DNA of 57,004 bases from a virus: the IMG/VR virus record IMGVR_UViG_3300047497_000008, positions 1-57,004 of that record; one strand, given 5' to 3'. The position numbers and the translations under genes were made by a program. The notes beneath the pieces are model-generated. The model was not told the DNA's origin, did not search any database, and saw only the letters and a program-made list of their open reading frames with translations. Positions 1-57,004 of the stretch are shown one piece after another. Each line of letters starts with the position of its first letter. Positions within the stretch are counted from its first letter, which is position 1.

Positions 1-127
1 GAACTTAGTTCCGGGGTGTCATTCTCTGCCACGTTGGATTTCCTATTTGAGCGAGCGCGCGATGGATCGATAGTGTTCGGCCACTGCGGCGCAGAACTCG
101 TGCCTCGGAAGACCTGTCGAAAAGAAA
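1..127. repeat. Terminal overlap copy 1, identical to 56878-57004 (circular contig closure)
   Basis: Direct reading: gaacttagttccggggtgtcattctc...ctgtcgaaaagaaa is present at both ends. ORFs continue across the junction. Confidence 0.95.
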
Positions 128-339
128 TCCGATACACTGCCCGATCCCCAAATCGCCGGGTTATCCGCCGCGCGCGCTACTTCGAGTCGGGCTTCGTTCG
201 CGCCGAGATAGCGAACCGCGTCTCCAAAGACTAGGTGAACCAAATCCGCGCTCGGATTGTGAAGCACCGCGACGCCGTCCGCAAACCTTGCGCTCACAAA
301 AAGCTCTGTGCGCTTCCTTATGATGTTTATGTCGGTCAT
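43..339 (-). CDS. hypothetical early protein
   Basis: The track ORF 43..348 starts at TTG. ATG 339 has GGGAGA about 10 nt upstream. Its stop lies 10 nt before the start of the 56358..56909 gene across the junction. Confidence 0.6.
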   Translation of the reverse strand: MTDINIIRKRTELFVSARFADGVAVLHNPSADLVHLVFGDAVRYLGANEARLEVARAADNPAIWGSGSVSDFFSTGLPRHEFCAAVAEHYRSIARSLK

Positions 340-390
340 AGTTTCCAATTCTCCCGCGAGTTACCCGCGTGCCGTTGTTGGCGACACGCG

Positions 391-403
391 GGAACTTAGT
401 TCC
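391..403. repeat. GGAACTTAGTTCC palindrome
   Basis: Intergenic, 52 nt upstream of ATG 339. Confidence 0.95.
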
Positions 404-417
404 GACAGGCCGAGCGG

Positions 418-786
418 TTAGAGACCGCCGATGCTTTCGTCGGGCTCCTCCAGAAGCTTCGCGTTGCACGCCTCCACGAAAGCATCCCAGTTGGGCTTCT
501 TGTCGTCGGCGAGAAGCGCCTTGAGATTGCCGCCGCCGTGCTCCTGAATGAGTGCGACCGCCGCCTCGGCGCCATGCTTGTCCTTGACCGCGCGAGCGGC
601 CTCCTGAACCTGTGCCGCCGTGTGCTTCGTCACAGCCGCCTCCTTGGGAGGCTTTGACGCGGTCGACTTGCCGGACGCGGCCGGTGCGGCAGATCCGGCA
701 GATCCGGGCGTGGCGCCCTTCAGCAGTGCTTCCGTGTTCTTGTTGATCGCTGCCGTGAGCGACTTGATATCATCTTCAAGTGCCAT
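418..786 (-). CDS. hypothetical Ala/Lys-rich early protein
   Basis: 122-aa ORF with ATG at 786 and GGAGA 9 nt upstream. It is the first gene of the leftward unit, next to the divergent promoter region. Confidence 0.7.
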   Translation of the reverse strand: MALEDDIKSLTAAINKNTEALLKGATPGSAGSAAPAASGKSTASKPPKEAAVTKHTAAQVQEAARAVKDKHGAEAAVALIQEHGGGNLKALLADDKKPNWDAFVEACNAKLLEEPDESIGGL

Positions 787-835
787 AGGAACGTGTCTCC
801 GTTGTCGTTAGGGCAAAATCGCCAGTGACAGCCAG

Positions 836-864
836 ACGATAACCGCCGACCCCAAGGCTGTCAA
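836..864 (-). promoter_or_regulatory. putative sigma70-like promoter, leftward (TTGACA-N17-TATCGT)
   Basis: On the minus strand, TTGACA (864-859), a 17-nt spacer and TATCGT (841-836) lie upstream of gene 418..786. Confidence 0.4.
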
Positions 865-878
865 CAAAGAAAATTCGA

Positions 879-939: not shown

Positions 940-1221
940 ATGGAAGCCGAGGTTATACCATTGCCGGGCTGGTTGGCAACAATACCGCCCATCGAGCGAG
1001 AGCTTTACTATAACAAGTTCATACTGAATGTTGCCGCGTTGTACGTGAGTCCTGAAATGAGTCTCAACGCGCTTGCCGACAAGCTGGAAATCTCGCCACC
1101 AGCGCTCCACCATCAAATGTCGCGGACGGGCGGCATCTCGGAGCGGTGGGTGATGAGGATAAATCGGCTCGTGGGATCGAAGATCCTGCCGATCGCAAAG
1201 ATAAACCCGCGCTTCCGTTGA
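940..1221 (+). CDS. small HTH-type DNA-binding protein (putative regulator)
   Basis: 93-aa ORF with an AAGGAG RBS. The segment MSLNALADKLEISPPALHHQMSRTGG looks like a helix-turn-helix. Confidence 0.6.
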   Translation: MEAEVIPLPGWLATIPPIERELYYNKFILNVAALYVSPEMSLNALADKLEISPPALHHQMSRTGGISERWVMRINRLVGSKILPIAKINPRFR

Positions 1222-1251
1222 CGATGACGCGCGCATAAAGGATTACATTCC

Positions 1252-3771
1252 ATGGCAGTACCGGGGGAAAGCGCCTTCATGGCGCTCTACGCACTCGACG
1301 CCGTAGAAAACGGGTACGAAATCGTACCGATAAAGCTGGACTCCAAGGCTCCAGTGTTTGCAGAGTGGCAAAAAGTACCAAGTAATAAGAAGACGGTGCA
1401 AAACTGGATACCGCAATACGGGCGAAACGGTTTTGGCATCCGAACAAAACTCACTCCAGGCGTAGATATAGACTGTCTTGACGCCGATCTGGTCGAGCAA
1501 ATGGTCGATTTCGTGCAATGCGAAGTCGGATTCGGCCCTGTCCGCGTTGGAAAAGCGCCAAAAACCCTTCTCGTCTACCGATCGTCGGTCCCGTTCAAGA
1601 AGGTGTCGAGCAAGGTTTGGGTTGATGAGTGGTTACAGGAAAACAAGGTTGAAATTCTCGGCGACGGGCAGCAATTTGTCGCTTACGGCATTCACCCCGG
1701 CACGAAAGCGCCCTATCGATGGATCGGCCGCGACACGCCTCTAGTAACGGCGGCTGGGAAGCTCTGTGAGATCACACAAGAGCAAGCGCGAGCGATCTGC
1801 GCCGAGTTTGACCGGCTGGCCGAGCTGAAAGGCTGGGAGCCGAAGCGAAACACGTCGCCGCAGCTCACGAACGGCCACCTGCGCGATCCCGACGACGTGT
1901 TCTTGAGCGATACGCCGATCGCCGATATCTCGTCAGAACAGCTTAGGGCGAAACTGTTCTCGATCCCGAATGATCCGATGGAGGGTGAACAGGATTACGA
2001 TACTTGGACGAACATCGGTATGGCGTTGCACCACCAATTCGACGGCGCCGACGAAGGATACGATCTTTGGGTTGAGTGGTCGGAACAATCGAGCAAGCAC
2101 GAAATCGGGCAGAACGAATACAAGTGGCCGTCGTTCAAGCATGACGAGAGCCGGGCGCCGATCACGGCGCGGTACATCATAAAACTGGCCGGCGAGTTTG
2201 AAGCCGAAGAGATCCGCGAACAGAAAGCCTCGATCGAGCAACTACTGGCAAACGCGTTGAACGCGCAGCACATAAAAGAGCTATGCGCCAAAGTCAAAGA
2301 AGTGAAGTTGGACGACTTCGACAGATCCGAGCTGCAAAAGCGAATCCAAAAACGCTACAAGGATCTGACCGGCCACGTTCTCACGAGCGCCGAAGTCCGC
2401 AAGCTCACGCGATACGAACAGCCGGGCGACTTGCTCCGGGCAAGTCACAAATGGCTTGAGGATTGGGTTTTCATTTCGGGTGAAGGTAGGTTCCAGCAGC
2501 TCAACGGCGACCCGTTGGCATTGAGCCGAGAAGCGTTCAATCTCGCGTTCGCGCATAAGCTGTTGACGCCGACTGAAATCGCCGAAGGCCAGTCCGTGCC
2601 GAGCGTGGAGCCATCCACCTTCGCGATAACGAATTACGGAATCCCAGTCGTCAACGCGATGATCTATGCACCCGATCAGGACCGGGTTTTCACGCGTGAC
2701 GGCGTGCAGTACGGCAACACCTATTCGGAAGCTGGCCGGGCCGTCATACCGGAACTAAGTTCCGCACGCGACCGTGAGAACGTCAAGCTGGTCGAGAAGC
2801 ATTTCGAGCATCTTATCGAAGACGAACTAGAGCGCGAAATGTTCAAATCGTGGATTGCTTGGGTCGTTCGCAAACCCGGCAACCGCGTGAAATGGGCTGT
2901 CCTGTTGCAAGGCGCCAAGGGTATCGGCAAGACGACTCTTTTCAACTTGTTCGAGGCGATCCTTGGCGAGTCCAATTGTCAGGCCGTCAGCAACGATGAC
3001 CTGAAGGGCGTCTATAACGAATGGGCGATGAAGTCGCTGGTGTTCGTGGAGGAAGTGAAGGCGCAAGGGTCACAGTACGACGTGTTGAGCCGTCTCCAGA
3101 TATTCATTACTAATGACAAGATCCCAATCCGGCGTATGCGTATTGCCCCGTTCAATGTTCGGAATTATGCGAGCTATCTGTTGACGACAAATCGTGTGAA
3201 CGCGTTACCGTTAAGTGAGGACGAGAATCGTTACTACGTCATCTTCTCACGGTGGCAGGAATCCAACGCCGAAGAGTACGCCGCGTGGGCGGCCGAGAAT
3301 CCCAAATACTTCGATCGACTTCGCCGGGCGATCAGCGAATCTCCGGGCGCGTTGCTCAAGTGGTTCTCAAATATGAAACTGCACCCGAAGTTCAATCCGC
3401 ACGGTCGCGCGATCAAGTCGGAAGGTCGCGATACGATGGTGAGTCTGGAGACAGGCGAGAAGTCGTCGGCGCTGGCGGCATTGCTCGCGGAAGGCGAACC
3501 CGGCATGAACGCGGAGCTGATAAGTTCCACGAATCTACGCCAGCTTATCGGCGAAAACCTGCTCGAGATCCCGTTGACGGGCGGCGGCTGGCGCAACACT
3601 TTGATCGACGCGGGGCTCCGGCCACTAGGTCAAGTGCGGCTGGAGGGCCGATTTGGACCCCAAGAAACCTACTGGAGTCGCACCCCAAAACGCTTCAAAA
3701 ACCTCGATCTAAGCCCGAATTTGGACCTGATGCGAAAGACCCTCGGGATAAAGTCGCCGTCAAGTAGTTAA
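1252..3771 (+). CDS. bifunctional primase-polymerase / D5-P4-type replicative helicase
   Basis: 839 aa. AEP/prim-pol-like motifs: GVDIDCLD, VEILGDGQQFVAYGIHPGT. PriCT-like segment: YDTWTNIGMALHH...GYDLWVEWS. P-loop: LLQGAKGIGKTTLFN. Walker B-like: LVFVEEV. Confidence 0.9.
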   Translation: MAVPGESAFMALYALDAVENGYEIVPIKLDSKAPVFAEWQKVPSNKKTVQNWIPQYGRNGFGIRTKLTPGVDIDCLDADLVEQMVDFVQCEVGFGPVRVGKAPKTLLVYRSSVPFKKVSSKVWVDEWLQENKVEILGDGQQFVAYGIHPGTKAPYRWIGRDTPLVTAAGKLCEITQEQARAICAEFDRLAELKGWEPKRNTSPQLTNGHLRDPDDVFLSDTPIADISSEQLRAKLFSIPNDPMEGEQDYDTWTNIGMALHHQFDGADEGYDLWVEWSEQSSKHEIGQNEYKWPSFKHDESRAPITARYIIKLAGEFEAEEIREQKASIEQLLANALNAQHIKELCAKVKEVKLDDFDRSELQKRIQKRYKDLTGHVLTSAEVRKLTRYEQPGDLLRASHKWLEDWVFISGEGRFQQLNGDPLALSREAFNLAFAHKLLTPTEIAEGQSVPSVEPSTFAITNYGIPVVNAMIYAPDQDRVFTRDGVQYGNTYSEAGRAVIPELSSARDRENVKLVEKHFEHLIEDELEREMFKSWIAWVVRKPGNRVKWAVLLQGAKGIGKTTLFNLFEAILGESNCQAVSNDDLKGVYNEWAMKSLVFVEEVKAQGSQYDVLSRLQIFITNDKIPIRRMRIAPFNVRNYASYLLTTNRVNALPLSEDENRYYVIFSRWQESNAEEYAAWAAENPKYFDRLRRAISESPGALLKWFSNMKLHPKFNPHGRAIKSEGRDTMVSLETGEKSSALAALLAEGEPGMNAELISSTNLRQLIGENLLEIPLTGGGWRNTLIDAGLRPLGQVRLEGRFGPQETYWSRTPKRFKNLDLSPNLDLMRKTLGIKSPSSS
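2751..2763. repeat. GGAACTAAGTTCC palindrome
   Basis: Inside the primase-helicase gene, read as PELSS. Confidence 0.95.
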
Positions 3772-3813
3772 TAAAAATCAAAAAATTTTAGACAGATTGC
3801 AACACAAAACCGA

Positions 3814-4144
3814 CCTAAGTACCTAAGTACACCTAAGTACCTAAGCACGGCCGATCGAGCTGCTGGACCCGTGCTTAAGCGTGCTTACCCCCCGTGCTTA
3901 CGGTAACGCGTTGATATATAAGGCGTACTTAGCTCTTTTGCCGTACTTAGGTCCCTGGCTTCATTCTATATATGATGTAGTAACGAATCATGTATCGGCC
4001 ACCGGGTCGAAAAAGATCTCTTATATGTATATGTATTTTACCTAAGCACAGCTAAGTACCTAAGTACCATATGATAAATCGTTAGGGTTTGCCTCACTTT
4101 TTGGTGCTTGGCTCCCGTGCTTAGGTGTTCTCGGACCTAAGAAC
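3814..4144. repeat. origin-like iteron cluster (CCTAAG[T/C]AC / GT[A/G]CTTAGG) flanking an AT-rich segment
   Basis: Direct copies at 3814, 3822, 3832, 3840, 4041, 4052, 4059 and 4136. Inverted copies at 3871, 3881, 3894, 3925, 3943, 4105 and 4117. The cluster lies immediately downstream of the primase-helicase gene. Confidence 0.75.
3961..4040. other. AT-rich putative DNA-unwinding segment inside the iteron cluster
   Basis: tcattctatatatgatgtagtaacgaatcatgtat ... cttatatgtatatgtatttta stands out in an otherwise GC-rich genome. Confidence 0.55.
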
Positions 4145-4492
4145 AGCCCGGAGAACGCGTTTTCAGGAAAAAATTTTCACCGAAACGACGGCCGAAGAGC
4201 CGGATCGGTCGATCTCTGGTCCAGGATGACGCGTTTGCCACGAAAAATTGGACCTGTCTGGCCGTTTTCGCAAAATTTCCCCCACCGGGCTCAGCGCCCC
4301 TCGCCCACCGCGCCAGGACCCTAGGAGGGACCCAAACACCCTTCAACCCCTTGATTTTGCACGCTTTTCCGATGTTTTCCCGCTCTAGGGATGGGCGATC
4401 TACCGCACCTAAAATCCGCGCGTTCCCGCTCAAAACCTGAGGCAATCCCTCACTTTTCGCCGATCCAGCCGCGTTCCTGTCACCTGCATCTA

Positions 4493-4505
4493 GGAACTCA
4501 GTTCC
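4493..4505. repeat. GGAACTCAGTTCC variant palindrome (centre C)
   Basis: First unit of the 30-bp tandem repeat. Confidence 0.9.
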
Positions 4506-4522
4506 ACCGTGCGGCCGATCTC

Positions 4523-4535
4523 GGAACTCAGTTCC
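4523..4535. repeat. GGAACTCAGTTCC variant palindrome (centre C)
   Basis: Second unit of the 30-bp tandem repeat. Confidence 0.9.
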
Positions 4536-4888
4536 ACCGTGCGGCCGATCTCGGAACCACATCCGAGACGTAGCCAAACATCGCCGCTAATGCCGATTTG
4601 CCGGCCGCCTGGTGGGGGAAAAGGGATAGGCCGCTAGGGTAGTACCAGAATGGGGTCAACATCGCTGTACGGCCGTTAAAACGGCACTAGCGTCGATTTC
4701 AACCTGCGAGACGTGTTCATCCCACACTCATACAACCGATAACGCGTCTGTCCGACCAAAGTGGCCGATTTGCGACTATTGCACGTTTGTATAACATCGT
4801 GAGATATCAACGCGTTAAGGCGTAAATTAGTACACTGGCTTACTACCTTCTCACACCTGGTACGCGGTGCAGCGTCGTTTCGGACAAC

Positions 4889-4920
4889 AAAAAATCCCGA
4901 TAGATCTCTCTATCGGGATT
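4889..4920 (-). terminator. rho-independent terminator (minus strand) after gene 4953..5159
   Basis: 12-bp stem aatcccgataga / tctatcgggatt with loop tctc. On the minus-strand transcript it is followed by a U6 run (A-run 4889-4894 on plus). Confidence 0.7.
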
Positions 4921-4928
4921 GTCGAGGT

Positions 4929-4941
4929 GGAACTTAGTTCC
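4929..4941. repeat. GGAACTTAGTTCC palindrome
   Basis: Lies between the stop of 4953..5159 and its terminator. Confidence 0.95.
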
Positions 4942-4952
4942 GATGGTCGCTG

Positions 4953-5159
4953 CTATGGGCGACACTCTCGCATGATATCATCCGAACGCCAGTCACACTC
5001 GGGAAGGGCTTGATACCGAGCTACCGACGCCGCAATCGATCGCTGTTGATCGATATGGCGATGATAGCTGTCAGCGTAATCCGTACCGACGAAAAGCAGC
5101 ATGAGAACGACGGTGGCGATTCCTAGCGTTCCGATGATCGCCGCGCTTGGGCTTTCCAT
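4953..5159 (-). CDS. small membrane protein
   Basis: Hydrophobic helix AAIIGTLGIATVVLMLLFVG. ATG 5159 has GGGAGAG upstream. The track ORF starts at GTG 5168. Confidence 0.5.
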   Translation of the reverse strand: MESPSAAIIGTLGIATVVLMLLFVGTDYADSYHRHIDQQRSIAASVARYQALPECDWRSDDIMRECRP

Positions 5160-5161
5160 GA

Positions 5162-5377
5162 TCAGCACTCTCCCATGACGCGGCCGTTTTCACCCCATAC
5201 GAACCACTTGTTACCGTTGGACGTCACGATGTGGAAGCCTTCCACCCACCAGTCGCTACCGCGTTCCGCGCTTATGATTCGTGTTCCCGACAACCGCCAT
5301 CTGGCCTCCATCGCTAAGACATAATCTATAGCGGCGTCATGAGACGGGACGAACAATTCGGCGACATACTCAGACAT
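5162..5377 (-). CDS. hypothetical protein
   Basis: 71-aa ORF with AGGAG 7 nt upstream of ATG 5377. Confidence 0.6.
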   Translation of the reverse strand: MSEYVAELFVPSHDAAIDYVLAMEARWRLSGTRIISAERGSDWWVEGFHIVTSNGNKWFVWGENGRVMGEC

Positions 5378-5441
5378 TCTAGGCTCCTATCAGGTTTGAA
5401 ACGCGGTATCGGCCGCGACGTTTTCCATAAAACGTAAGAGC

Positions 5442-5470
5442 GTTTTAATTCGCCGATTCCGATCCGTCAA
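5442..5470 (-). promoter_or_regulatory. putative promoter (minus strand) TTGACG-N17-TAAAAC for gene 5162..5377
   Basis: Minus-strand reading gives TTGACG (5470-5465), a 17-nt spacer and TAAAAC (5447-5442), just downstream of the 5504-5535 terminator. Confidence 0.3.
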
Positions 5471-5503
5471 TACGTGAAAACGAGTTTTTTGCGAAATCGG
5501 CAC

Positions 5504-5535
5504 AAAAAATCCCGATAGATCGCTCTATCGGGATT
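5504..5535 (-). terminator. rho-independent terminator (minus strand) after gene 5567..6007
   Basis: Same 12-bp stem as at 4893-4920 with loop tcgc, followed by a U6 run on the minus strand. It belongs to a duplicated roughly 58-bp cassette that also contains the palindrome. Confidence 0.7.
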
Positions 5536-5542
5536 CTCACTC

Positions 5543-5555
5543 GGAACTTAGTTCC
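5543..5555. repeat. GGAACTTAGTTCC palindrome (17-bp TCGGAACTTAGTTCCGA)
   Basis: Lies between the stop of 5567..6007 and its terminator. Confidence 0.95.
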
Positions 5556-5566
5556 GAACGACGCGG

Positions 5567-6007
5567 CTAGGACGCGACTCCTGACGCTAGGCTGTTAAGC
5601 CGTAGCAGGCCCAGATCATGCTGTAACAGCGTTTTAAGGTAGCGCTGTAGAGCGCGCCGCAACACTGGTCGGCATGGTCCCGACACCTTTACCGAGATCC
5701 CGTCGAATAACGGCTTTACCGTCGCGAAATTCGACGCGTGGAATCCCGCTTTCTCGTCTCGGAAATAGAGCGCAATCGTGATCCGAGACTCGTCGGAATG
5801 CTTTAGATCGATCGTTCCGCGAATCGCTTTAGTCGTTAGATCCGGCTCGGGATAGATCACATGATTCAGATAATCCGCTTCGAGTCTGTGAATCTCAGAT
5901 CTCATGGCGTTTGCTCGTTCAGGATAATTGTTATCCCGTAGCGTACGGTACGCAATAACGAGTTTATGTATCTGCCGTATTAGCGTGATATCTTTCGACG
6001 CGTACAT
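5567..6007 (-). CDS. hypothetical protein
   Basis: 146-aa ORF with AAGGAG 9 nt upstream of ATG 6007. Confidence 0.65.
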   Translation of the reverse strand: MYASKDITLIRQIHKLVIAYRTLRDNNYPERANAMRSEIHRLEADYLNHVIYPEPDLTTKAIRGTIDLKHSDESRITIALYFRDEKAGFHASNFATVKPLFDGISVKVSGPCRPVLRRALQRYLKTLLQHDLGLLRLNSLASGVAS

Positions 6008-6026
6008 AATCAGGACTCCTTGCTTT

Positions 6027-6338
6027 CTACAGTTTCAGAACGTGACGAGCCGCATGGTGAGCGGCATGGTGAGCGGCATGGTGATAATGCGAGTGATGAC
6101 TCCCGTGCCCATGCGTCGGGAACTGGTACCGACGCATGGGCAGTTTGGCCAGGGACGTACCGATTGTCAGTGAGACCAGAGAGCCTACCGAGTGCCCTAT
6201 GACGAGCAACGCGATAGCGGAAACGACTCCCGCACCTAGCAGCATGGCTGACACGGCCAGCCTCCCGTTAGCTTCCCGTATCGCCGCATTAACGCGATCC
6301 CGTGTCGCGGCGAAATCATCTGGGCAATGCGGCGTCAT
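6027..6338 (-). CDS. membrane protein with His-rich C-terminal tail
   Basis: TM segments AVSAMLLGAGVVSAIALLVIG and LVSLTIG. Tail HGHGSHHSHYHHAAHHAAHHAARH. ATGA overlap with the upstream stop. Confidence 0.6.
   Translation of the reverse strand: MTPHCPDDFAATRDRVNAAIREANGRLAVSAMLLGAGVVSAIALLVIGHSVGSLVSLTIGTSLAKLPMRRYQFPTHGHGSHHSHYHHAAHHAAHHAARHVLKL
6049..6084. repeat. 12-bp tandem repeat x3 (gcggcatggtga) encoding the HHAA repeats
   Basis: Direct reading: gccgcatggtga gcggcatggtga gcggcatggtga. Confidence 0.85.
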
Positions 6339-6760
6339 GATTCAGCCATTGCAGCTTGGAATCCTAGCGCATCGCCAAAAAAGGCCGCGTGGTGTTGCCA
6401 GAAACGCGTGTCCTCGGGACAACTCCGCATAGCATCAAAACACATCGCGGCATGCCGAACGGCAGCAATGTCGCGTGCATCCCCATTAGGGATTCCGTAG
6501 ATGTGGAATTGATATCCCCTATGGTCACAGTGGATGGACCCCTTGCGGTACTTTCCTTTGACGTAGCAATATCCGGGCTGACTAAAGTACGTGTCAGCTT
6601 CTCCCGCGACATATACCACCCGTCGATTGCCGTCACTGCAAAGGCAATTTCGGATCGCCGCGAGCCTATTAGGGAAAAACAGGCTCCCGCGACTCACGAC
6701 TTCTATTGATCCGTTTGCACAAACGTGGCGTTCGTAATCCATTCGGTATCTTGCACCCAT
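6335..6760 (-). CDS. hypothetical Cys/His-rich protein
   Basis: 141-aa ORF with a TAATG start/stop overlap with the upstream gene. Confidence 0.6.
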   Translation of the reverse strand: MGARYRMDYERHVCANGSIEVVSRGSLFFPNRLAAIRNCLCSDGNRRVVYVAGEADTYFSQPGYCYVKGKYRKGSIHCDHRGYQFHIYGIPNGDARDIAAVRHAAMCFDAMRSCPEDTRFWQHHAAFFGDALGFQAAMAES

Positions 6761-7233
6761 TATGACACTCCCGTTGAAACAAGATCCAATACCGGAGACA
6801 CGTAAAGGAGTCCGTCGTCACCCCGATACAGATCCGACTCGCCCATGGTTCTCGCGCGTTCGGTAAGGTGATCGACAACGGCGCCTAGCTCGCGATCCCG
6901 ATATCCGACTCCATGTCCGTTGCGAGTGTACCAGAGATCCCGACCTGCGCACTCTGAGTCATATCCGCCGCGTACACGCTGGATTGTATCGCTCGAGTCC
7001 AGTTCATACGCGATATCGAGATACTTCTCATTGTTGCGTTCAAATGCCCTGCATTCATGAACGATTTGAGCCAGTGCCGACGGAGCCAGCATGTCGAAAC
7101 TGATATCCGACATTTCTTCATCCGACTCGGAAGTGAAAAACATTGCTTCGATATAGCCTCGGCAGAAATACGACAACGCGTTATAGCGTTTTGCCGCTTC
7201 CACACTTCCGAGATCCAATACGAACTCAGGCAT
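6760..7233 (-). CDS. hypothetical acidic protein
   Basis: 157-aa ORF. It has the conserved GAAGGAGTCTGAATCATG initiation cassette and shares its first 8 residues (MPEFVLDL) with the next gene. Confidence 0.65.
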   Translation of the reverse strand: MPEFVLDLGSVEAAKRYNALSYFCRGYIEAMFFTSESDEEMSDISFDMLAPSALAQIVHECRAFERNNEKYLDIAYELDSSDTIQRVRGGYDSECAGRDLWYTRNGHGVGYRDRELGAVVDHLTERARTMGESDLYRGDDGLLYVSPVLDLVSTGVS

Positions 7234-7248
7234 GATTCAGACTCCTTC
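7209..7248. repeat. 40-bp repeat copy 1 (start region of gene 6760..7233)
   Basis: cgagatccaatacgaactcaggcatgattcagactccttc differs at 2 positions from 7590-7629. Confidence 0.9.
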
Positions 7249-7614
7249 CGCTTGTTTGATTGCCGCCCCGCAATCGTTACACTGTTCATCCGCGATCGCG
7301 CGTAGAACGCGGTCTATGGCACCCTTGCGAGTGGCATGCTTTTCCTTCTCCCGTGACAAACGCGCGGAGAAATGAACGAACCACTTAGCACCTGAGCATG
7401 GGTGCGTAATGATTGCGAAGATATCGCCGTCGATTTTGACAGCGATTTCTACCGCGTCGTTACTGCGCCAATAATCGAGGACCACGGCTTTACCGGATTC
7501 CAGAAATTTTTCTTCGATACGCGTTTTCACAATCACGACTCCACTTTGAAGTTGACGCAAGTTCCGAACGGCGGATTGCTGCCACCTGTCGAGATCCAGT
7601 ACGAACTCAGGCAT
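7237..7614 (-). CDS. hypothetical protein
   Basis: 125-aa ORF with the same initiation cassette and the MPEFVLDL N-terminus. Confidence 0.65.
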   Translation of the reverse strand: MPEFVLDLDRWQQSAVRNLRQLQSGVVIVKTRIEEKFLESGKAVVLDYWRSNDAVEIAVKIDGDIFAIITHPCSGAKWFVHFSARLSREKEKHATRKGAIDRVLRAIADEQCNDCGAAIKQAEGV

Positions 7615-7629
7615 GATTTAGACTCCTTC
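7590..7629. repeat. 40-bp repeat copy 2 (start region of gene 7237..7614)
   Basis: cgagatccagtacgaactcaggcatgatttagactccttc. Confidence 0.9.
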
Positions 7630-8010
7630 TTTCGGCACTTCAGCGGTAAGGGATTCATAGAACATTTGCCCTATGTAATCCTTAATATCGTTACGATCAC
7701 GACCGGATACCGTGACATTAATTTCATGAGCAAGGGATGGACGAATGATAACATTGTGTTCCGTCCATCCATCGTAACATCCGTTCTCATCCATACGATG
7801 AAACGACGTACGGAACACCAGCTTTTCGGGAGTCGAGTTCAGCATATCGAAAGCCGTTCCAGAGTCGAATCCGGAACCGGACGGCAGGCATTCGCGACAA
7901 ATGCTGACAAGCCTATCTCTGTGGTTGTGTTCCCAGATGGTATTGCCTGATTTCTGGCAATTCTCGATTGCCGCGACAAGCGACGCGATTTCACGGTAAA
8001 CCTTAGTCAT
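7618..8010 (-). CDS. hypothetical protein
   Basis: 130-aa ORF. The initiation cassette GTAGGAGTCTGAATCATG is the minus-strand reading of 8008-8025. Confidence 0.65.
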   Translation of the reverse strand: MTKVYREIASLVAAIENCQKSGNTIWEHNHRDRLVSICRECLPSGSGFDSGTAFDMLNSTPEKLVFRTSFHRMDENGCYDGWTEHNVIIRPSLAHEINVTVSGRDRNDIKDYIGQMFYESLTAEVPKEGV

Positions 8011-8021
8011 GATTCAGACTC

Positions 8022-9263: not shown

Positions 9264-9305
9264 ACCGTGACTCCTGTAGGTTAATCGGTTCCAGAAATGC
9301 GCGTC

Positions 9306-9318
9306 GGAACTTAGTTCC
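9306..9318. repeat. GGAACTTAGTTCC palindrome
   Basis: Intergenic, 43 nt upstream of ATG 9263 (VWA gene). Confidence 0.95.
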
Positions 9319-9338
9319 GCGCGCATCTTAGCAAACGA

Positions 9339-10220: not shown

Positions 10221-10223
10221 GAT

Positions 10224-10541: not shown

Positions 10542-10553
10542 GGTCGGTTCCTT

Positions 10554-11615: not shown

Positions 11616-11662
11616 TCGGTTCGCTCCTTAACTCGTTATCGTATCGTTATCGGCGATACGCT

Positions 11663-11693: not shown

Positions 11694-11702
11694 CGCATAG
11701 CG

Positions 11703-11777: not shown

Positions 11778-11781
11778 TCGA

Positions 11782-13833: not shown

Positions 13834-13847
13834 CAGGAGGACGCGTT

Positions 13848-48389: not shown

Positions 48390-49945
48390 AGAATCCCTTT
48401 CAAGTCTTCCGATACGCTGTTCTCCCGCATAAGTCGTTTGCGTAAAGCGCGCAGTTTGTTGAACAGCATATTTTGCGCGCCTTCTTTCCGGCGCAACTTG
48501 TCAACTACATGCACGTCCAACGTACCGACCGCCATAAGCAAATGCACAAACACTTGTCGGGCTTGCCCTTGCCGTGCCACGCGACCTATAAGTTGCAAGA
48601 ACAGCTCTAGGGACCAGCATATATCAAAAAACACAATACGGCGACCAGGGCCAAGCTGAAGATTAAGACCGTGGCCGGCACTTGCCGGGTGAACCAATAG
48701 CATCGGGATTCTACCGGCGTTCCAGGCGTCTTTTTGCGATCCCGTTTTGTCGAGAACGACCGCTTGCGGAAATGCCTTTTGAAGTCGCGCCAAGTTTGGT
48801 TTGTACCAGTATGCGACAAGTAAGGGCTCGCCGTCCGTCTCTTCAACAATTTCACGTAGCTCTTCGATTTTCGCATCATGGAAAAACCGGGCCTTTCCGT
48901 CATTATCATAGACGCATCCCGACGCGAGCTGTAAGAGCTTACCGGCAAGCGCGCCGCCGTTCACGGCTTCTATGAACTCGTCATCGGGAAGACGAAGGAC
49001 AAACTCACGCTCGAATTTCCTGTACTGCTTGAGCTGATCCGTTTCCAGAACTACCGGACGCCGGAGAATTTGAGGGATCAACCGATCTGGCAAATGATCT
49101 TCGGCTTTCATCACCAAACATATGTCGGATATCTTGCGGATAATCTCAGTATCGGCGCCCGGCAACAGCGTGTAGGAGTGCGAGAACCTGTTATGCGCGA
49201 AATACTTGTTACGAAAGTGAGTGATAAAAGTCCCGAAGCGTTCGCCACGATCAAGAAGATAGATCTGCGCGAACAAATTCATGTAGCTTTCAGTGCATGG
49301 CGTCGCCGTAAGCTCCACAAGTCTTCTCACAAAAGGTAGCACCTTGCACAGCGCCTTGAAGCGTTTTGTCGAATGATCTTTGAACGCCGAGGCTTCATCT
49401 ATGATGACCGTGTTATACGGCCACTTGCTGCCCCAATGCTGCACGAGCCATTCGACGCCTTCGCGGTTGATGATATGAATGAACGTGTTTTCTTTCGCGA
49501 GCCTGACTTTTATCTCGTGCCGCTTCGCTGTCGTCGCCTTCGTCGCCGCTTTCCCCGCTTCGGCCTGATCGTCGCCATTCGACAGCGCGTTACGCCGCGC
49601 CCAATTGCCAGCTTCGCAGATCTCGTCTTCGTGTCCCTCGTGCCGTAGAATTGTGTAAGTGAGATCTGAGCTAAAATCCCAACCTTGGATCTCGTCGGGC
49701 CAAGTCTGGATCGCGACCTTCATGGGTGCGATAATCAGAACACGTGTATCGGGTAGCCACTCGCGGAGCATCTTCAAGAGCATGAGGATGATTACAGTTT
49801 TGCCGAGTCCCATATCGGCATACAGCCCGGCAAACGCGTTATCCCATAAGAACTCCAACGCCATGTGTTGATACGCGTGCATGTCCGGCGCGTAGTGCCG
49901 TATAAGCAATTCGCGATCGAACTTGTCAACGTCAAACGAAGTCAC
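48386..49945 (-). CDS. SNF2/DEAD-like helicase
   Basis: DMGLGKT (motif I), IIDEAS (motif II), HPASAGHGLNLQ. GTG 49945 overlaps the methyltransferase stop (GTGA). The track extension to 50185 overlaps the methyltransferase gene. Confidence 0.85.
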   Translation of the reverse strand: MTSFDVDKFDRELLIRHYAPDMHAYQHMALEFLWDNAFAGLYADMGLGKTVIILMLLKMLREWLPDTRVLIIAPMKVAIQTWPDEIQGWDFSSDLTYTILRHEGHEDEICEAGNWARRNALSNGDDQAEAGKAATKATTAKRHEIKVRLAKENTFIHIINREGVEWLVQHWGSKWPYNTVIIDEASAFKDHSTKRFKALCKVLPFVRRLVELTATPCTESYMNLFAQIYLLDRGERFGTFITHFRNKYFAHNRFSHSYTLLPGADTEIIRKISDICLVMKAEDHLPDRLIPQILRRPVVLETDQLKQYRKFEREFVLRLPDDEFIEAVNGGALAGKLLQLASGCVYDNDGKARFFHDAKIEELREIVEETDGEPLLVAYWYKPNLARLQKAFPQAVVLDKTGSQKDAWNAGRIPMLLVHPASAGHGLNLQLGPGRRIVFFDICWSLELFLQLIGRVARQGQARQVFVHLLMAVGTLDVHVVDKLRRKEGAQNMLFNKLRALRKRLMRENSVSEDLKGIL

Positions 49946-50664
49946 GGAACTAAGTTCCGACGTGCATCCGCGTTCGCGGACAAAGCTGTTTGCAGCCGCG
50001 CCTTGAGCACCGCAAACGGCGGCTCCGGCACCGGGCCGCGCGGTCGCGGAAGCGGCTTGAAGAGCGGCAACGGATGCTCGTAATCTTGCTCCATCTGCAT
50101 CCGCATACCGCGATGCCACACGTTCCATTGCACGTCCATCAGCGGTGAGACGCCGCGCTCTTCCGCGAGGAACGCCGGACGCCACATGAGCGGCAGCACA
50201 AGCTGCGGCGGATTCTCGTCAAAATACCTCGCGTTCTCCGCGACGTTCCAGAAATTGCACTTCGTTAGCATCGCATAAACAGAAACAGATTTGTACCACT
50301 CTGCGCGCCGAATAAAATCGAGCGCAAGTGCGAAAGGCGGATTGGTGATGATCGAATCCGTTCCCATAATCTGATACATCGGTTCCGACCAAAGAAAATC
50401 GGACAGCTCGCCGTATCCCGTATTGCGGATATCCGTCGAGACGACTTCGACGCCATAACTTTCGATAACATAGCTCATGCTGCCATCGCCGCACGCCGGC
50501 TCCCAAACGCGGCGGATCGGCGTCTCGTCAAGATTCATGAGCACGTTCATAAGCGCCATCGTAACGTCAGGCGGCGTCGGGTAGAAATCCGAGGGCTTGC
50601 GATCGTAGGTCTTACTCGACTCGATCCAGGCCGATGACACTTTGCTTACTTCACGTACCGGCAT
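49942..50664 (-). CDS. N6-adenine DNA methyltransferase
   Basis: SDFYPTPPDV, EPACGDG (SAM motif I), ITNPPF (motif IV). Confidence 0.8.
   Translation of the reverse strand: MPVREVSKVSSAWIESSKTYDRKPSDFYPTPPDVTMALMNVLMNLDETPIRRVWEPACGDGSMSYVIESYGVEVVSTDIRNTGYGELSDFLWSEPMYQIMGTDSIITNPPFALALDFIRRAEWYKSVSVYAMLTKCNFWNVAENARYFDENPPQLVLPLMWRPAFLAEERGVSPLMDVQWNVWHRGMRMQMEQDYEHPLPLFKPLPRPRGPVPEPPFAVLKARLQTALSANADARRNLVP
49946..49958. repeat. GGAACTAAGTTCC palindrome
   Basis: Encodes the last residues (RNLVP) of the methyltransferase. It ends 1 nt before the SNF2 GTG start. Confidence 0.95.
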
Positions 50665-53857: not shown

Positions 53858-54265
53858 TCACGAACCCTCGAAAGTGTTTCGCGCAATGAATTTATCGAAC
53901 TCCAGCGCGTCCGCAATACTGATATGGAGAATGGGCTTTCCGGCTTCTCGGAAATACCGCTCTTCGGCACGGATGCCTGCGGATTCCGCCCAGCCGTCCA
54001 TCTTGACGATGATAAGCAATGTCGCCGCGTCCATGAACGGCGCGTTGACTTTCTGCCAGTACGCGCCCGTCTTCGCGTCAACATCGCTCACGATCGAGTG
54101 GTAGTGCGCGATCGGGCAGTAGACGGCTTCGCCGACTTTCAGGATGCCTTCCGCTGCCGTGCAGGCGTCCTTGTAAGCCTTCTCACGCCCTAGCTGATAA
54201 TTCGTGTACGGAGTCGCGACATAAAACAGCGGCCTTAGCGCCTCGTTCAATTTTCGCATCACCAT
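53858..54265 (-). CDS. DUF1937 / nucleoside 2-deoxyribosyltransferase-like protein
   Basis: FYVATPYTNY, YCPIAHYH, VKMDGWAESAGIRAEERYF. Confidence 0.6.
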   Translation of the reverse strand: MVMRKLNEALRPLFYVATPYTNYQLGREKAYKDACTAAEGILKVGEAVYCPIAHYHSIVSDVDAKTGAYWQKVNAPFMDAATLLIIVKMDGWAESAGIRAEERYFREAGKPILHISIADALEFDKFIARNTFEGS

Positions 54266-54284: not shown

Positions 54285-54297
54285 GGAACTTAGTTCC
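54285..54297. repeat. GGAACTTAGTTCC palindrome (17 bp, +GAGTGA flank)
   Basis: Intergenic, 20 nt upstream of ATG 54265. Confidence 0.95.
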
Positions 54298-54306
54298 GAG
54301 TGACGA

Positions 54307-54330
54307 CGGACGCCGGTTTCCCGGCGTCCG
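54307..54330. other. GC-rich 10-bp stem-loop next to the palindrome in the 54266-54338 spacer
   Basis: cggacgccgg tttc ccggcgtccg. No U-run follows. Confidence 0.6.
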
Positions 54331-54338
54331 CGTGACGA

Positions 54339-54989
54339 CTAGAGACCGTCGAAATCGTCCTCATCGAAGGACGAGTCTTCGCCTTCGTCATCGAACGTTG
54401 CGTCAATCGCCTCTTCCGAGATCCGGCCGACGCCGAACGGCTCGTCGGGGCGCCCGTTACTAGGAATGCGCTGCACGGCGATAAGATTGGCGTTGACTCG
54501 CGTTCCGTACTTGCCGGGCAGCTGGAACCACGGGCGCAACAGGATGTTCACCCAACAGCCGGCGTAGAATACTTCCGCCGCCTTCTCGGGCGGTACGACG
54601 CGCTTTTTCGCATCGCGAAGAGCCGGCGCGCGCTTGGGCTCGCGGACGGAGAAGTACCACGAGTCTACCAGCTCTTCCTTGCCGGCGTTGTCGCCGTCGC
54701 GGCAGAACTTGCGATCGGCGGGAAACCCCTTGCCGGTTTTCTGATTGTTGGCCTTGAGTTCCTTGTCGATCTCTTCGACAATCAGCGCAAGTGCCTTTGC
54801 GTGAGTCGCCTTCGGCATGATGCCGACACAGCCGTAGGCCGCTTTCTGCGGCTGGCCGTTGTCGTCCAAGCCGCCGCTCCAAGGTGCGTCAAGATGTGGA
54901 TAGGACAGGCGAACACCTTTCACGAGAATAGTGCCGTCAGAAAACAGCGTTGCGTTCTCGACGGTTTTGACAACCTTACGATCGGTCAT
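54339..54989 (-). CDS. DUF2815 ssDNA-binding-like protein
   Basis: The VKGVRLSYPHLDAP start is typical of DUF2815. Acidic C-terminal tail DEDDFDGL. Confidence 0.7.
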   Translation of the reverse strand: MTDRKVVKTVENATLFSDGTILVKGVRLSYPHLDAPWSGGLDDNGQPQKAAYGCVGIMPKATHAKALALIVEEIDKELKANNQKTGKGFPADRKFCRDGDNAGKEELVDSWYFSVREPKRAPALRDAKKRVVPPEKAAEVFYAGCWVNILLRPWFQLPGKYGTRVNANLIAVQRIPSNGRPDEPFGVGRISEEAIDATFDDEGEDSSFDEDDFDGL

Positions 54990-55032
54990 GATTTATCCTT
55001 CGGATTATGCGTTACGGATTCACGGATTATCC

Positions 55033-56361
55033 CTAGCCTTCGATATCGAAACTATCGTCGGCTAGGTTTGTCACTGACTCCCGATCGTCGCTTTCAGGTG
55101 CCAGCGTTGGTTTGCCGGGCGTCCGCTCGACAAGCGAGCCGACGAGAGCCAGGGCGTCTTTACGTTTGTATCCAAGTTTCTCGATAAGCAATTCCTCCAT
55201 CTCTGCCGGTGAAATCGTAGTGACCTTGCGCGTATCAGCCGGATTGAGACCAACAAACTTGGCCTCTTCGGTTAGATCCGCGCCGAGTTTGAAGCTGCGG
55301 GAGGCGCGGCCATCGACCAGTTTATAGCCGGGGATCTTCTCATTCAAGCTGAAAGCGCGTCGAAACATTTCAGCTTCGACGGCAGCGAAAAACTTCTCGA
55401 ATACTTTTCGGTATCCGTACATTCTCGCCAACGCGTTTACGTGAAGATTGGGTAAACGCTTCTTCCCTGACTCCAGCCTTTGCGAAACGATGATTTCGGG
55501 CTCCGGCATAAACGCCGTGACGGCCTGTACATCAACAGCCTGATACTCGCCCTCGATCTCGAATGCGTCGTCCGCAAACGACTCGGTTAAGAGCTGCATA
55601 GCCGGGCACGTCGCAATGACTTTGCAGTACCGGCACGCCTCTTCCGAGGCGACTCGCGGCGCGTCGAGTGACCACGCTTCCCGCGCTTTGTCCCGAAAGA
55701 ACGCTTCCGCTAGCATCAAGTCGTCAATATCGAGGCTCCACGTTTCCCAGCGATCATGAACCGGCTGGCCGATCGCCAGCGTGACTTTTTTGATGCACCA
55801 CAAACCATTGAAGCGAACATACGCGCCGATCGCGTAAATGAGAAGCTGGTAGTTCTCTTTCGCGTGAACCGGAATATAACCCGTCTTGAAGTCCGCGATA
55901 ATCAAATGACCGGGCAACAGCAACACGTCGTCAGCCGTGCCGCCTTGGCCGGCGATCGGCGCCCAATCCGACTCGAGCCGTAGCTCGTGATGATGCTCGT
56001 GCGCCTGAAATCCGCCGATCCAGGCGACGTATTGCCGGCAGAAATCGATCATCTGCGCGGTTACGGTGATCGTGAATCCGTCAACTACCTCCGTGCGCCC
56101 TATGAGCGCGTCAACTTCATCGCCGTACGGCGGCGGGTCTCCGAAAATCGCGGCGCGTTCGTCCGTGTTGAACCAGTCGTCAACGATCCGATGCGCGACC
56201 GTTCCCCATGCCGCCTCTTCGCCGGCTTTGTCCGGCTCAAGCAAGTTCGGCACGAGCGACCCGGTGCAGCGCGCCCAGCGGCTCGCCGACGACGGCGAAA
56301 AGATCGAGTGCGCCTGAGTGCGGTAGTGCGCCTCCAGGTCGCGCAGAACGTCGTCGCTCAC
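55033..56361 (-). CDS. DUF2800-type PD-(D/E)xK (Cas4-like) nuclease
   Basis: SPSSASRWARCTGS, IIADFKTGY, CRYCKVIATCP. GTG 56361 overlaps the upstream stop (GTGA). The track start is 56445. Confidence 0.8.
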   Translation of the reverse strand: MSDDVLRDLEAHYRTQAHSIFSPSSASRWARCTGSLVPNLLEPDKAGEEAAWGTVAHRIVDDWFNTDERAAIFGDPPPYGDEVDALIGRTEVVDGFTITVTAQMIDFCRQYVAWIGGFQAHEHHHELRLESDWAPIAGQGGTADDVLLLPGHLIIADFKTGYIPVHAKENYQLLIYAIGAYVRFNGLWCIKKVTLAIGQPVHDRWETWSLDIDDLMLAEAFFRDKAREAWSLDAPRVASEEACRYCKVIATCPAMQLLTESFADDAFEIEGEYQAVDVQAVTAFMPEPEIIVSQRLESGKKRLPNLHVNALARMYGYRKVFEKFFAAVEAEMFRRAFSLNEKIPGYKLVDGRASRSFKLGADLTEEAKFVGLNPADTRKVTTISPAEMEELLIEKLGYKRKDALALVGSLVERTPGKPTLAPESDDRESVTNLADDSFDIEG

Positions 56362-56909
56362 GGCTTCGACAGCTCTCTGGCGACTTCCCGAAGAAAAGTG
56401 CGCCAAGACGACGCCGATCCGCCAGGAGGCGAGTTGAGGAGACACTTCAAGTTGTGCGGTTCAGAGAAACCACAAGAAGCGCACACGTCCGCGATTAGTT
56501 TACGGGCGCACTCTTCACCTTTCATCGCTTTAAGCTCCACGGCGGCAGACATAACTTGCTGCGCCGTGGGGGAGGGAGGGCCATCGGCGATCTTAGCCCG
56601 CTGGCGCCTAGCGCGCTTTATGTTCTTGGCGAGTGCCGCGTCAAAAACCGTGTTCTCGGCGAGTGCCGCGTCAAAAACCGTGCGTTGTGAGTTTTGCATC
56701 AGAACGCGCATCGCGTGAATGTCCGTAAAAAACCCATAAACGGGTTTCAGCGCGTGGTGGATTAGCGGGAGCGCGTTGCACGGAAGCGGTTCGCCGTGCG
56801 TATCCGCTGCGAACTCATCCGCGAGACGGATCAAACCACCAAACCATTGCTCGAAAGCAAATTCTTCGGCGTCTTTGGAACTTAGTTCCGGGGTGTCATT
56901 CTCTGCCAC
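56358..56909 (-). CDS. hypothetical early protein with an internal 10-aa duplication
   Basis: 183-aa ORF. TVFDAALAEN/TVFDAALAKN is encoded by a 30-bp tandem repeat. Codons 7-11 (PELSS) are the palindrome. Confidence 0.6.
   Translation of the reverse strand: MAENDTPELSSKDAEEFAFEQWFGGLIRLADEFAADTHGEPLPCNALPLIHHALKPVYGFFTDIHAMRVLMQNSQRTVFDAALAENTVFDAALAKNIKRARRQRAKIADGPPSPTAQQVMSAAVELKAMKGEECARKLIADVCASCGFSEPHNLKCLLNSPPGGSASSWRTFLREVARELSKP
56628..56684. repeat. 30-bp tandem repeat (1.9 units) inside gene 56358..56909
   Basis: ggcgagtgccgcgtcaaaaaccgtgttctc is followed by ggcgagtgccgcgtcaaaaaccgtgcg. Confidence 0.9.
56877..56889. repeat. GGAACTTAGTTCC palindrome (also at the window start, bases 1-12)
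   Basis: Codons 7-11 (PELSS) of gene 56358..56909. Confidence 0.95.
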
Positions 56910-57004
56910 GTTGGATTTCCTATTTGAGCGAGCGCGCGATGGATCGATAGTGTTCGGCCACTGCGGCGCAGAACTCGTGCCTCGGAAGACCTGTCGAAAA
57001 GAAA
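56878..57004. repeat. Terminal overlap copy 2, identical to 1-127
   Basis: Same 127 nt as the window start. The unique genome length is therefore 56,877 bp. Confidence 0.95.

Follow-up and report, generated by a model that had tools for sequence, protein, structure and literature searches.

Proteins of the ParB family serve as centromere binders in ParABS systems, as regulators of plasmids and of integrative and conjugative elements (KorB, BisD, VirB) and in nucleoid occlusion (Noc). Genes annotated as "ParB-like" are also very common in phages, where they are mostly unexplained. The DNA considered here, the IMG/VR virus record IMGVR_UViG_3300047497_000008, which was analysed over its whole length of 57,004 nucleotides (the window), encodes a ParB/KorB-like protein at 16160-17296 and carries a 13-bp palindrome, GGAACTWAGTTCC, that is scattered over the entire genome. 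The palindromes are probably parS/OB-like sites of the phage's own ParB/KorB-family protein and, taken together, an array that loads it over the whole genome.

The closest known system is KorB of plasmid RK2 with its 12 OB operators, TTTAGCSGCTAAA (PMC11790492). Both replicons combine a ParB-family protein with a 13-bp palindrome that has an odd centre base, and both have 10-30 sites over ~57-60 kb, near and far from promoters. The window differs in being a phage rather than a plasmid replicon, in having twice as many sites, which are evenly spaced and mostly not at promoters, and in a site sequence that is unrelated; its protein has a GxxR box in place of GERRxR and a long Lys/Ala/Pro tail, and the partners IncC/ParA and KorA/TrbA were not detected in the scanned open reading frames (ORFs) of the window. 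Noc, with ~70 Noc-binding sites (NBS) on the Bacillus subtilis chromosome, resembles the phage protein as a ParB paralogue without ParA that has many dispersed palindromes, and spreading from such sites is a feature of Noc; in contrast, Noc is a cellular protein with canonical cytidine triphosphate (CTP) motifs, which acts in nucleoid occlusion and is tethered to the membrane by an N-terminal helix. BisD/bisS of ICEclc and VirB/virS are ParB-like regulators on mobile elements that load at palindromes, spread and control distal genes (PMC12409273, PMC10770331). The GxxR motif of BisD is retained in the phage family (G92, R95), whereas these systems use two or few sites as opposed to 20-30 in the phages, and the activator domain of BisD and its partner BisC have no equivalent seen in the window.

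Many copies of a 13-17 bp protein-binding site across a phage genome are likewise known from (i) the stoperators of Cluster A mycobacteriophages, asymmetric sites that follow the direction of transcription and bind the prophage repressor, (ii) the CIR sites bound by the phiC31 repressor and (iii) N15, a plasmid prophage with 4 sopC sites and the SopA/SopB partition pair. The window sites are symmetric, and no ParA, repressor or integrase was found among the ORFs checked; an array of stoperator-like prophage-repressor operators was rejected, the sites being perfectly symmetric and their centre base independent of the direction of transcription. Cluster O mycobacteriophages contain more than 30 dispersed 17-bp dyad-symmetric repeats, TGTTCGGNNNCCGAACA, about one third of them in coding regions and most of them not at promoters (PMC4351075). 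The outer bases of this repeat are parS-like. Cluster O phages are also not obviously temperate and encode a ParB-domain protein, whereas phage lineage and site sequence are unrelated to those discussed here. In Corndog gp90 (L401:925-2433), Pfam recognises the ParB N-terminal domain only and no ParB helix-turn-helix (HTH), and the parallel therefore stays a lead; by analogy, the array logic may explain the 17-bp repeats of Cluster O, too. Compared with all these systems, the phage array is the densest and most evenly spaced, and it occurs in phages in which no integrase or repressor was found. The literature searched yielded no description of these phage repeats, and the protein-plus-site arrangement across a clade of related phages is apparently undescribed so far.

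In the window, the 20 perfect copies and four near-copies reported by the sequence-only reading were all recovered at their coordinates; the site at 56877 recurs truncated at 1-12, because bases 1-127 duplicate 56878-57004, and thus represents one site, not two. This identity is an assembly overlap, so the genome is circular or permuted and ~56,877 bp long. The earlier estimate that chance would produce essentially no copies was borne out: 100 dinucleotide-preserving shuffles gave 0.00 perfect matches and, with up to two mismatches, a mean of 0.75 and a maximum of 4. In 300 synonymous-codon shuffles of the coding regions, the mean was 0.05 as compared with 8 intragenic 13-mers observed. The extension of most copies is also as had been noted (CGGAACTNAGTTCCG on both sides in 13 of the 24 sites), as are both 19-bp palindromes (13182-13200, 15061-15079) and the GAGTG/CACTC flanks of six sites. 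When the two halves are folded together, the half-site consensus is t-C-G-G-A-A-C-T; information ends ~8 bp from the centre, so that the element is a 13-15 bp palindrome with W (A or T) at its centre. Its 15-bp form is written c-GGAACT-W-AGTTCC-g, the corresponding 15-mer is CGGAACTWAGTTCCG, and CGGAACTTAGTTCCG designates the window-type (GAACT) site duplex, the counterpart of the GAAGT and GAAAT variants found in relatives. The largest gap between sites, 29487 to 35878, had been placed inside the tape-measure gene; it covers only part of this gene, together with two tail genes.

The proposed reader is encoded by a single gene:

16160-17296, plus strand: ParB/KorB-like protein of 378 aa, proposed reader of the palindromes

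The product combines a ParB/Srx domain at its N-terminus, which includes a G-E-S-R box, with a ParB-type HTH whose recognition helix is T-P-R-Y-I-N-D-L, and it matches PHROG 1033, "ParB-like partition protein", at E = 1e-39. Its AlphaFold2 (AF2) model, with a predicted local confidence (pLDDT) of ~85-92 over residues 30-240, has RK2 KorB as its best PDB match (8qa9, E = 3e-9, TM 0.66; also 8qa8), which supports the KorB/OB system as a precedent, as named in the sequence-only reading; ParB, Spo0J, Noc (7nfu, 7ol9), PadC and sulfiredoxin are further matches. The family profile matches ParB/Spo0J, Noc and KorB at E = 6e-10 to 4e-7, spanning the N-terminal domain and the HTH, and the homologues P0002, P0003, P0005, P0007, P0008 and AH2 gp28 carry the Pfam domain HTH_ParB (PF17762). 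The GERRxR box aligns to G-E-S-R in the window and to G-H-x-R in relatives, with G92 and R95 invariant. The C-terminal third is a Lys/Ala/Pro-rich tail with the acidic end DDGLAGL. Homologues have a comparable histone-H1-like tail (17000-17296 in the window), most of them followed by DDGLAGL, DDGMGGL, EDLSGL or EEVDI; this short acidic motif looks like a partner-docking peptide. No ParA-activating peptide of the LG[KR]GL type is present at the N-terminus of the window protein. A profile search yielded 7 homologues, whereas a word-based search with the full-length protein returned only the protein itself, the low-complexity tail being the probable cause; the metagenome scan yielded no closer relatives. 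In several relatives, a gene for a GapR-type (DUF2312) nucleoid-associated protein lies directly upstream of the ParB-like gene (L260:363-671, L061:11670-11969); none was recognised in the window.

The link between protein and site rests on co-occurrence and covariation. Every site-bearing locus with enough flank encodes a homologue of the 16160-17296 product, and among tail-gene loci with at least 9 kb of relevant flank, 11 had both ParB and sites, 2 had ParB without sites, none had sites without ParB and 6 had neither (Fisher p = 0.001). As judged from aligned sequences, the recognition helix tracks the variable base of the half-site across relatives:

GAAAT half-sites: helix R-H-[ILV]-x-N, in all 7 GAAAT phages
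GAAGT half-sites: helix R-[YF]-x-x-D, in all GAAGT phages (10 in the first set and 7 metagenome loci)
GAACT half-sites: helix R-Y-I-N-D, in the window
No sites: helix K-Y-V-x-D, in AH2 and contig L067

The pairing of GAAAT with R-H..N occurs in two separate ParB lineages of a tree built without the helix, and a forecast made from the helix alone (homologue P0002, RHIDN) proved correct, the P0002 contig having GAAAT sites. The helix Arg is present in every site-bearing homologue examined; among the three ParB carriers without sites that were examined, two (AH2 and contig L067) have Lys in its place. A homologue with the helix RYIDD, from an unrelated and non-phage-like context, is accompanied by only one GAAGTAACTTC, which lies ~0.8 kb from the gene. 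Gene and site are thus arranged like a classic parB-parS pair, and the phage arrays have plausibly expanded from such an arrangement. The assumption that so strong an enrichment implies a dedicated reader thus has a concrete candidate, a ParB/KorB-type gene in the phage itself with a helix that covaries with the half-site, and on this correlative evidence the 16160-17296 protein is very likely to be that reader.

The sequence-only reading had suggested that absence of the motif from close relatives would speak against a function; related phages carry it in variants that covary with the helix and differ at one base of the half-site. The following arrays emerged from a de novo scan for palindromes:

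BcepNazgul: GAAGTWACTTC, 18 copies
Erythrobacter phage R16L: GAAGTNACTTC, 25 copies
Sphingomonas phage Carli: GGAAA-N3-TTTCC, 30 copies, 13 of them GGAAATNATTTCC

With flanks, the Nazgul sites read tCG-GAAGTWACTTC-CGa, which is the window 17-mer bar one symmetric G/C exchange. Among 80 IMG/VR loci fetched around DNA-polymerase homologues, GAAGT- or GAAAT-type arrays were found in ~30 contigs, the densest with 19 sites in 18 kb, and the enterobacterial Chi-like relatives in this set had none. No sibling with the GAACT variant of the window was found with the exact 15-mer in IMG/VR or in the metagenome scan. One contig, L076 (IMGVR_UViG_3300046530_000117), has hybrid sites, CGGAAATAACTTCCG, with one GAAAT and one GAAGT half, beside pure GAAGT sites, and its ParB helix is R-F-V-D-D; this suggests relaxed specificity at the variable base. 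On the 41-kb contig L082 (IMGVR_UViG_2974591139_000001), which encodes a distant ParB homologue, another palindrome, AACAATNATTGTT, occurs four times within 10 kb, along with one GGGAACTAAGTTCCC.

Several observations weigh against an array read and coated by the ParB-like protein. The site-bearing phages share ancestry, and their co-occurrence with ParB is not phylogenetically independent. The temperate phage AH2 and the AH2-like contig L182 keep the homologue and have zero sites (no dispersed palindrome was found in AH2, and its repeat AGGTCCGAAT was rejected as such a site, being a cos-proximal iteron cluster). Distant homologues in 40-50 kb contigs are mostly without dispersed sites; the protein alone is therefore no predictor of an array. 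The helix that goes with GAACT differs from the GAAGT helix at one position (N as opposed to D/S/Y), in one genome only. The window protein falls below all Pfam and NCBIfam thresholds. The canonical GERRxR CTP box is reduced to G-x-x-R in the phage family, so that nucleotide-gated clamping is conjectural; the GxxR motif alone suffices for nucleoside triphosphate (NTP) binding in BisD (PMC12409273), and CTP-independent ParB-like proteins exist (PMC12260392). Neither a ParA/CbiA-type ATPase nor a KorA partner appeared in Pfam scans of the early and other non-virion ORFs, which left out most virion genes, nearly all of them matching virion genes of AH2 or BcepNazgul. The sole ATPase in the ParA-type scans is a MoxR-like AAA protein; as no ParA was detected, this is not a partition system. 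Lastly, the sites favour intergenic positions and lie just upstream of each of the three strong terminators, which could point to a role in transcription instead of coating.

The shared ancestry also leaves room for a different reader: the palindromes could be operators of another dimeric DNA-binding protein, either of the phage (the Cro-like HTH protein at 940-1221, the HicB-like ribbon-helix-helix (RHH) protein at 14861-15058 or an unannotated small protein) or of the host, with the ParB correlation a clade-level coincidence. Palindromic sites of 13-15 bp would suit many HTH or RHH dimers, and the site at 15064 lies directly 3' of the HicB-like gene. Yet 12 site-free relatives also have the Cro-like protein, whose HTH is wholly different between phages with the same motif and does not covary with it, and the HicB-like and other early proteins lack detectable homologues in the site-bearing Nazgul, R16L and Carli. 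The Cro-like, HicB-like and other early proteins were rejected as readers, and the Arc-like/RHH and Cro-like proteins that had been proposed from the window sequence found no support. A host reader is unlikely because GAAGT is common to Burkholderia and Erythrobacter phages and the variants differ among phages of related hosts. With the ParB helix covarying with the motif in two lineages, another reader is improbable.

The placement of the individual sites bears on how the array may work. The 24 sites are:

391-403: perfect site GGAACTTAGTTCC, intergenic, between the minus-strand ORFs 418-786 and 43-339
2751-2763: perfect site, within the primase gene 1252-3771, frame P-E-L-S-S-A
4493-4505: near-copy with centre C, unit 1 of the 30-bp tandem repeat 4488-4557, non-coding, after the primase gene
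4523-4535: near-copy with centre C, unit 2 of the 30-bp tandem repeat
4929-4941: perfect site, between the stop of ORF 4953-5159 (minus strand) and terminator 4920-4893, 8 bp from the hairpin
5543-5555: perfect site, between the stop of ORF 5567-6007 (minus strand) and the terminator copy 5535-5508, 7 bp off
9306-9318: perfect site, intergenic, between ORFs 9339-10220 and 8022-9263 (both minus strand)
11355-11367: perfect site, within the MoxR-like AAA gene 10554-11615, frame P-E-L-S-S-D
13185-13197: perfect site in the 19-bp palindrome 13182-13200, intergenic, 26 bp upstream of ORF 13223-13510 (plus strand)
15064-15076: perfect site, beginning 6 bp past the stop of the HicB-like ORF 14861-15058, in the 19-bp palindrome 15061-15079
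15964-15976: near-copy GGAACCAAGTTCC, within ORF 15686-16069, 196 bp upstream of the ParB-like gene
18456-18468: perfect site, in the convergent gap between plus- and minus-strand gene blocks, 10 bp upstream (in the minus-strand sense) of terminator 18445-18428
21253-21265: perfect site, where ORFs 21257-21514 and 20760-21251 (both minus strand) adjoin, overlapping the stop codon
24447-24459: perfect site, intergenic, flanked by the tail-fibre ORFs 24466-25623 and 21571-24420 (both minus strand)
28190-28202: near-copy AGAACTTAGTTCC, between small tail-assembly ORFs
29487-29499: perfect site, within the tail gene 29266-30663, frame G-T-K-F
35878-35890: perfect site, within the tape-measure gene, frame P-E-L-S-S-N
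39155-39167: perfect site, within ORF 39110-39748, frame L-E-L-S-S-A
41611-41623: perfect site, in the gap that separates the decoration-protein gene from the major capsid gene (start 41567)
45202-45214: perfect site, at the 5' end of the portal ORF, frame S-E-L-S-S-G, maybe intergenic if the portal start lies further downstream
48292-48304: perfect site, within the small-terminase ORF 47583-48389 (5' part)
49946-49958: perfect site, in the overlap of the 3' end of the putative N6-adenine methyltransferase ORF 49942-50664 with the 5' end of the helicase ORF
54285-54297: perfect site, intergenic, between the gene for a protein like single-stranded DNA-binding protein (SSB), 54339-54989, and ORF 53858-54265
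56877-56889: perfect site, with the truncated duplicate at window 1-12

The tandem repeat at 4488-4557 has 2.3 copies, with the centre-C variant GGAACTCAGTTCC and a degenerate third unit. Nowhere else does the motif cluster; the repeat might serve as a nucleation cluster or be what is left of a duplication.

The sites are more evenly spaced than random placement would give. The coefficient of variation (CV) of the gaps in the window is 0.43 as compared with 0.93 (P = 1e-4; 19 of the 20 perfect sites entered this test, the junction site being cut by trimming). The corresponding values are 0.50 in Carli (P = 1e-4) and 0.60 in R16L (P = 0.004), with ~0.94 for random placement; the value of 0.70 in Nazgul is not significant. 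In addition, 15 of the 24 window sites are intergenic, where 7.6% are expected (p = 1e-11); the relatives have 8 of 25 (R16L), 6 of 30 (Carli) and 4 of 18 (Nazgul) in intergenic positions. Between contigs that are ~70% identical, 7 of 9, 8 of 8 and 6 of 9 aligned sites are kept, as opposed to 4-7% of background 11-mers. Within genes, six of nine window sites are read in the frame x-Glu-Leu-Ser-Ser-x, where either centre base gives a synonymous codon (CTT/CTA); the DNA motif thus appears to be accommodated in proteins at minimal expense. Read as comparative sequence evidence, these patterns indicate that selection acts on the DNA of the sites itself.

The minus strand holds the three strongest intrinsic terminators of the window, 4920-4893, 5535-5508 and 18445-18428, of which the first two are near-identical hairpins with 12-bp stems (AATCCCGATAGAG.GATCTATCGGGATT, then a T-run). 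Each of the three has a palindrome 7-10 bp upstream. The same ParB/KorB-like reader might therefore be a site-specific transcription factor or roadblock at gene boundaries, which times early, middle and late expression in a KorB- or stoperator-like manner. The intergenic enrichment fits such a role, as do the fact that KorB, the best structural match, is a global repressor (PMC11790492) and the loss of the sites from the temperate AH2, which has CI/Cro-type regulators and an integrase. Intragenic sites are, however, in the majority in Nazgul (13 of 18), Carli (22 of 30) and R16L (16 of 25), promoter-linked operators would not be expected to be evenly spaced, and the intergenic bias is explicable by the lower cost of a 13-mer outside codons. 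Moreover, a scan with the sigma-70 consensus only showed sigma-70-like promoter hexamers to be neither enriched nor coincident with the sites. On balance, a purely transcriptional role appears rather unlikely. The palindrome itself was rejected as a promoter or terminator: it does not coincide with the hexamers, it has no U-tract, and the terminator hairpins are adjacent and separate.

The same positions, with many sites between ORFs and three just before terminators, could suggest an element at the RNA level, namely a small hairpin for processing, stability or termination, and the 19-nt versions do fold at -10.3 kcal/mol. The 13-mer, by contrast, folds at merely -3.4 kcal/mol, and the cores of the relatives reach 0 (GAAGUAACUUC) and -1.6 kcal/mol (GGAAAUAAUUUCC). 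The orientation of the centre base is not consistent relative to transcription, the sites occur on both transcription polarities and in coding frames chosen for protein neutrality, and a hairpin would leave the covariation with a DNA-binding helix unexplained; an RNA element is thus highly improbable. Among the four options left by the sequence-only reading (operator or roadblock, ParB-type loading site, modification or nick site, RNA hairpin), the loading site is favoured, and the hairpin loses ground as the cores of the relatives do not fold.

The site at 49946 overlaps a gene that offers a further candidate:

49942-50664, minus strand: putative gamma-class N6-adenine DNA methyltransferase of 240 aa, with the motifs FYPTPP, EPACGDG and TNPPF

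The motif could be the target of this enzyme, or of another modification or nicking enzyme, and serve as an epigenetic or structural mark. Apart from the gamma-class motifs, the presence of homologues in 20 of 30 site-bearing polymerase loci as compared with 2 of 48 site-free ones favours this idea, as do nucleotide-metabolism genes in the window (MazG-like, dGTP diphosphohydrolase N-terminal domain, DUF1937). BcepNazgul and Carli, on the other hand, have full arrays and no detectable methyltransferase homologue, so that the enzyme cannot be the general reader. In addition, 13-15 specified bases far exceed the usual methyltransferase targets, there is no rationale for enriching a protective methylation target, a palindromic nick site would yield double-strand breaks, and no TET/JBP or other DNA-modifying enzyme was found in the scanned ORFs. 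A modification mark is consequently quite improbable as the main function of the array; the methyltransferase might act on or near the sites. In 5mYOX systems, a TET/JBP dioxygenase is encoded beside a ParB protein without a DNA-binding domain (PMC13229309). Such a ParB-dependent thymidine dioxygenase system was rejected for the window, where no TET/JBP was found in the scanned ORFs and the ParB-like protein has an HTH.

That the palindrome is a passive or selfish repeat (a host-derived element of the repetitive extragenic palindromic (REP) type or a miniature mobile element) without function for the phage deserves hardly any credence. The same 15-mer, CGGAACTWAGTTCCG, is clustered in some metagenome-assembled genomes (MAGs) of Cytophagales/Bacteroidota, with up to 6 copies in 2 kb (L286, L262, L269, L290, L332); these clusters apparently represent a bacterial repeat family without relation to the phage sites. 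Across 2.9 million viral contigs, by contrast, the exact 15-mer is essentially single-copy: it occurs in 56 contigs, nearly all of them single chance matches and only one with 2 sites. The bacterial matches listed are scattered singletons save for unrelated low-GC taxa. Furthermore, no repeat unit flanks the motif past ~15 bp, and site positions are evenly spaced and conserved under purifying selection.

The whole-genome loading array thus remains the preferred explanation, and it could operate in the following manner: A dimer of the ParB/KorB-like protein would read each 13-15 bp site via its ParB-type HTH. The ~24 sites, one every 2-3 kb (1-3 kb across the clade) and spaced more evenly than chance, would act as a loading array rather than as gene-specific operators. 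By analogy with ParB, KorB, Noc and BisD (PMC11790492, PMC12409273), the protein may then spread or slide for a kilobase or two from each site until the covered segments merge into continuous coverage, possibly gated by NTP through the retained GxxR. The basic Lys/Ala/Pro-rich tail may provide additional non-specific DNA contacts and favour compaction. In this way, the whole phage chromosome would be marked and coated; this could serve to compact or compartmentalise it, to mark it as self or protect it, or to silence it over long distances as KorB does. From these comparisons we infer physical binding, nucleotide-gated spreading and biological role. It is well conceivable, if not quite probable, that the array works through spreading or coating. 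A more specific proposal is tentative: in an apparently virulent Casjensviridae-like clade, a ParB/KorB-type protein without ParA might, together with a "whole-genome centromere", condense the entire chromosome during infection. Such a centromere would consist of 20-30 loading sites (~1 per kb in the sequenced stretches of some contigs), with selection for even spacing. To our knowledge, ParB proteins of lytic phages have no established role of this kind.

The capsid and portal proteins group the window genome with Casjensviridae, the Burkholderia phages AH2 and BcepNazgul being nearest (43-60% identity) and sharing its gene order; the closest relatives have just 30-60% amino-acid identity, and megablast of 20 kb of the window against 50,697 phage records yielded no near-identical phage. 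A Cro-like gene and the primase gene occupy 940-3771 on the plus strand and are followed by a non-coding, iteron-rich region (3771-4950), the counterpart of the cos region in AH2 and Nazgul, and by the early genes (4953-18447). On the minus strand lie the lysis, tail, head and terminase genes, and then those for helicase, polymerase, SSB and exonuclease. No integrase-sized ORF is left unaccounted for in the window, and the ORFs checked included neither a repressor nor an integrase gene.

An AT-rich non-coding stretch after the primase gene (3800-4150) contains ~10 iteron copies, ACCTAAGTAC/GTACTTAGG with variants such as CGTGCTTA, which have ACTTAG in common with the centre of the palindrome; the equivalent cos-proximal region of AH2 has a different iteron, AGGTCCGAAT. 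The window iterons are probably binding sites for terminase (cosB) or origin binding sites. Adjoining the ParB-like gene is a nucleotide-metabolism cluster (13848-16069) with MazG-like, DUF1643 and dATP/dGTP diphosphohydrolase N-terminal (PF18909) proteins; DUF1937 is encoded elsewhere (53858-54265). These genes hint at nucleotide-pool manipulation or DNA modification, and neither PurZ nor TET/JBP had a match in the scanned ORFs of the window. The early region also encodes, at 8022-11615 on the minus strand, a trio of MoxR-like AAA ATPase, DUF3150 protein and DUF2201 metallopeptidase/VWA protein, which is without counterpart in AH2 or Nazgul.

The variants GAAGT, GAAAT and GAACT, paired with R-Y..D, R-H..N and R-Y.ND, respectively, provide a natural specificity series for DNA recognition by ParB, and phages with such arrays are available in culture together with their hosts (BcepNazgul, Sphingomonas phage Carli, Erythrobacter phage R16L). 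Orthogonal ParB/site pairs for DNA labelling are a possible tool. If the proposed mechanism is true, lytic phages with a genome-wide array of evenly spaced sites would represent a new use of the ParB switch: the protein would define a phage-DNA compartment or self-mark, by which phage DNA may be set apart from host DNA, shielded from nucleases and defence systems, or silenced globally. It would also give some of the "ParB-like" genes of phages a testable role.

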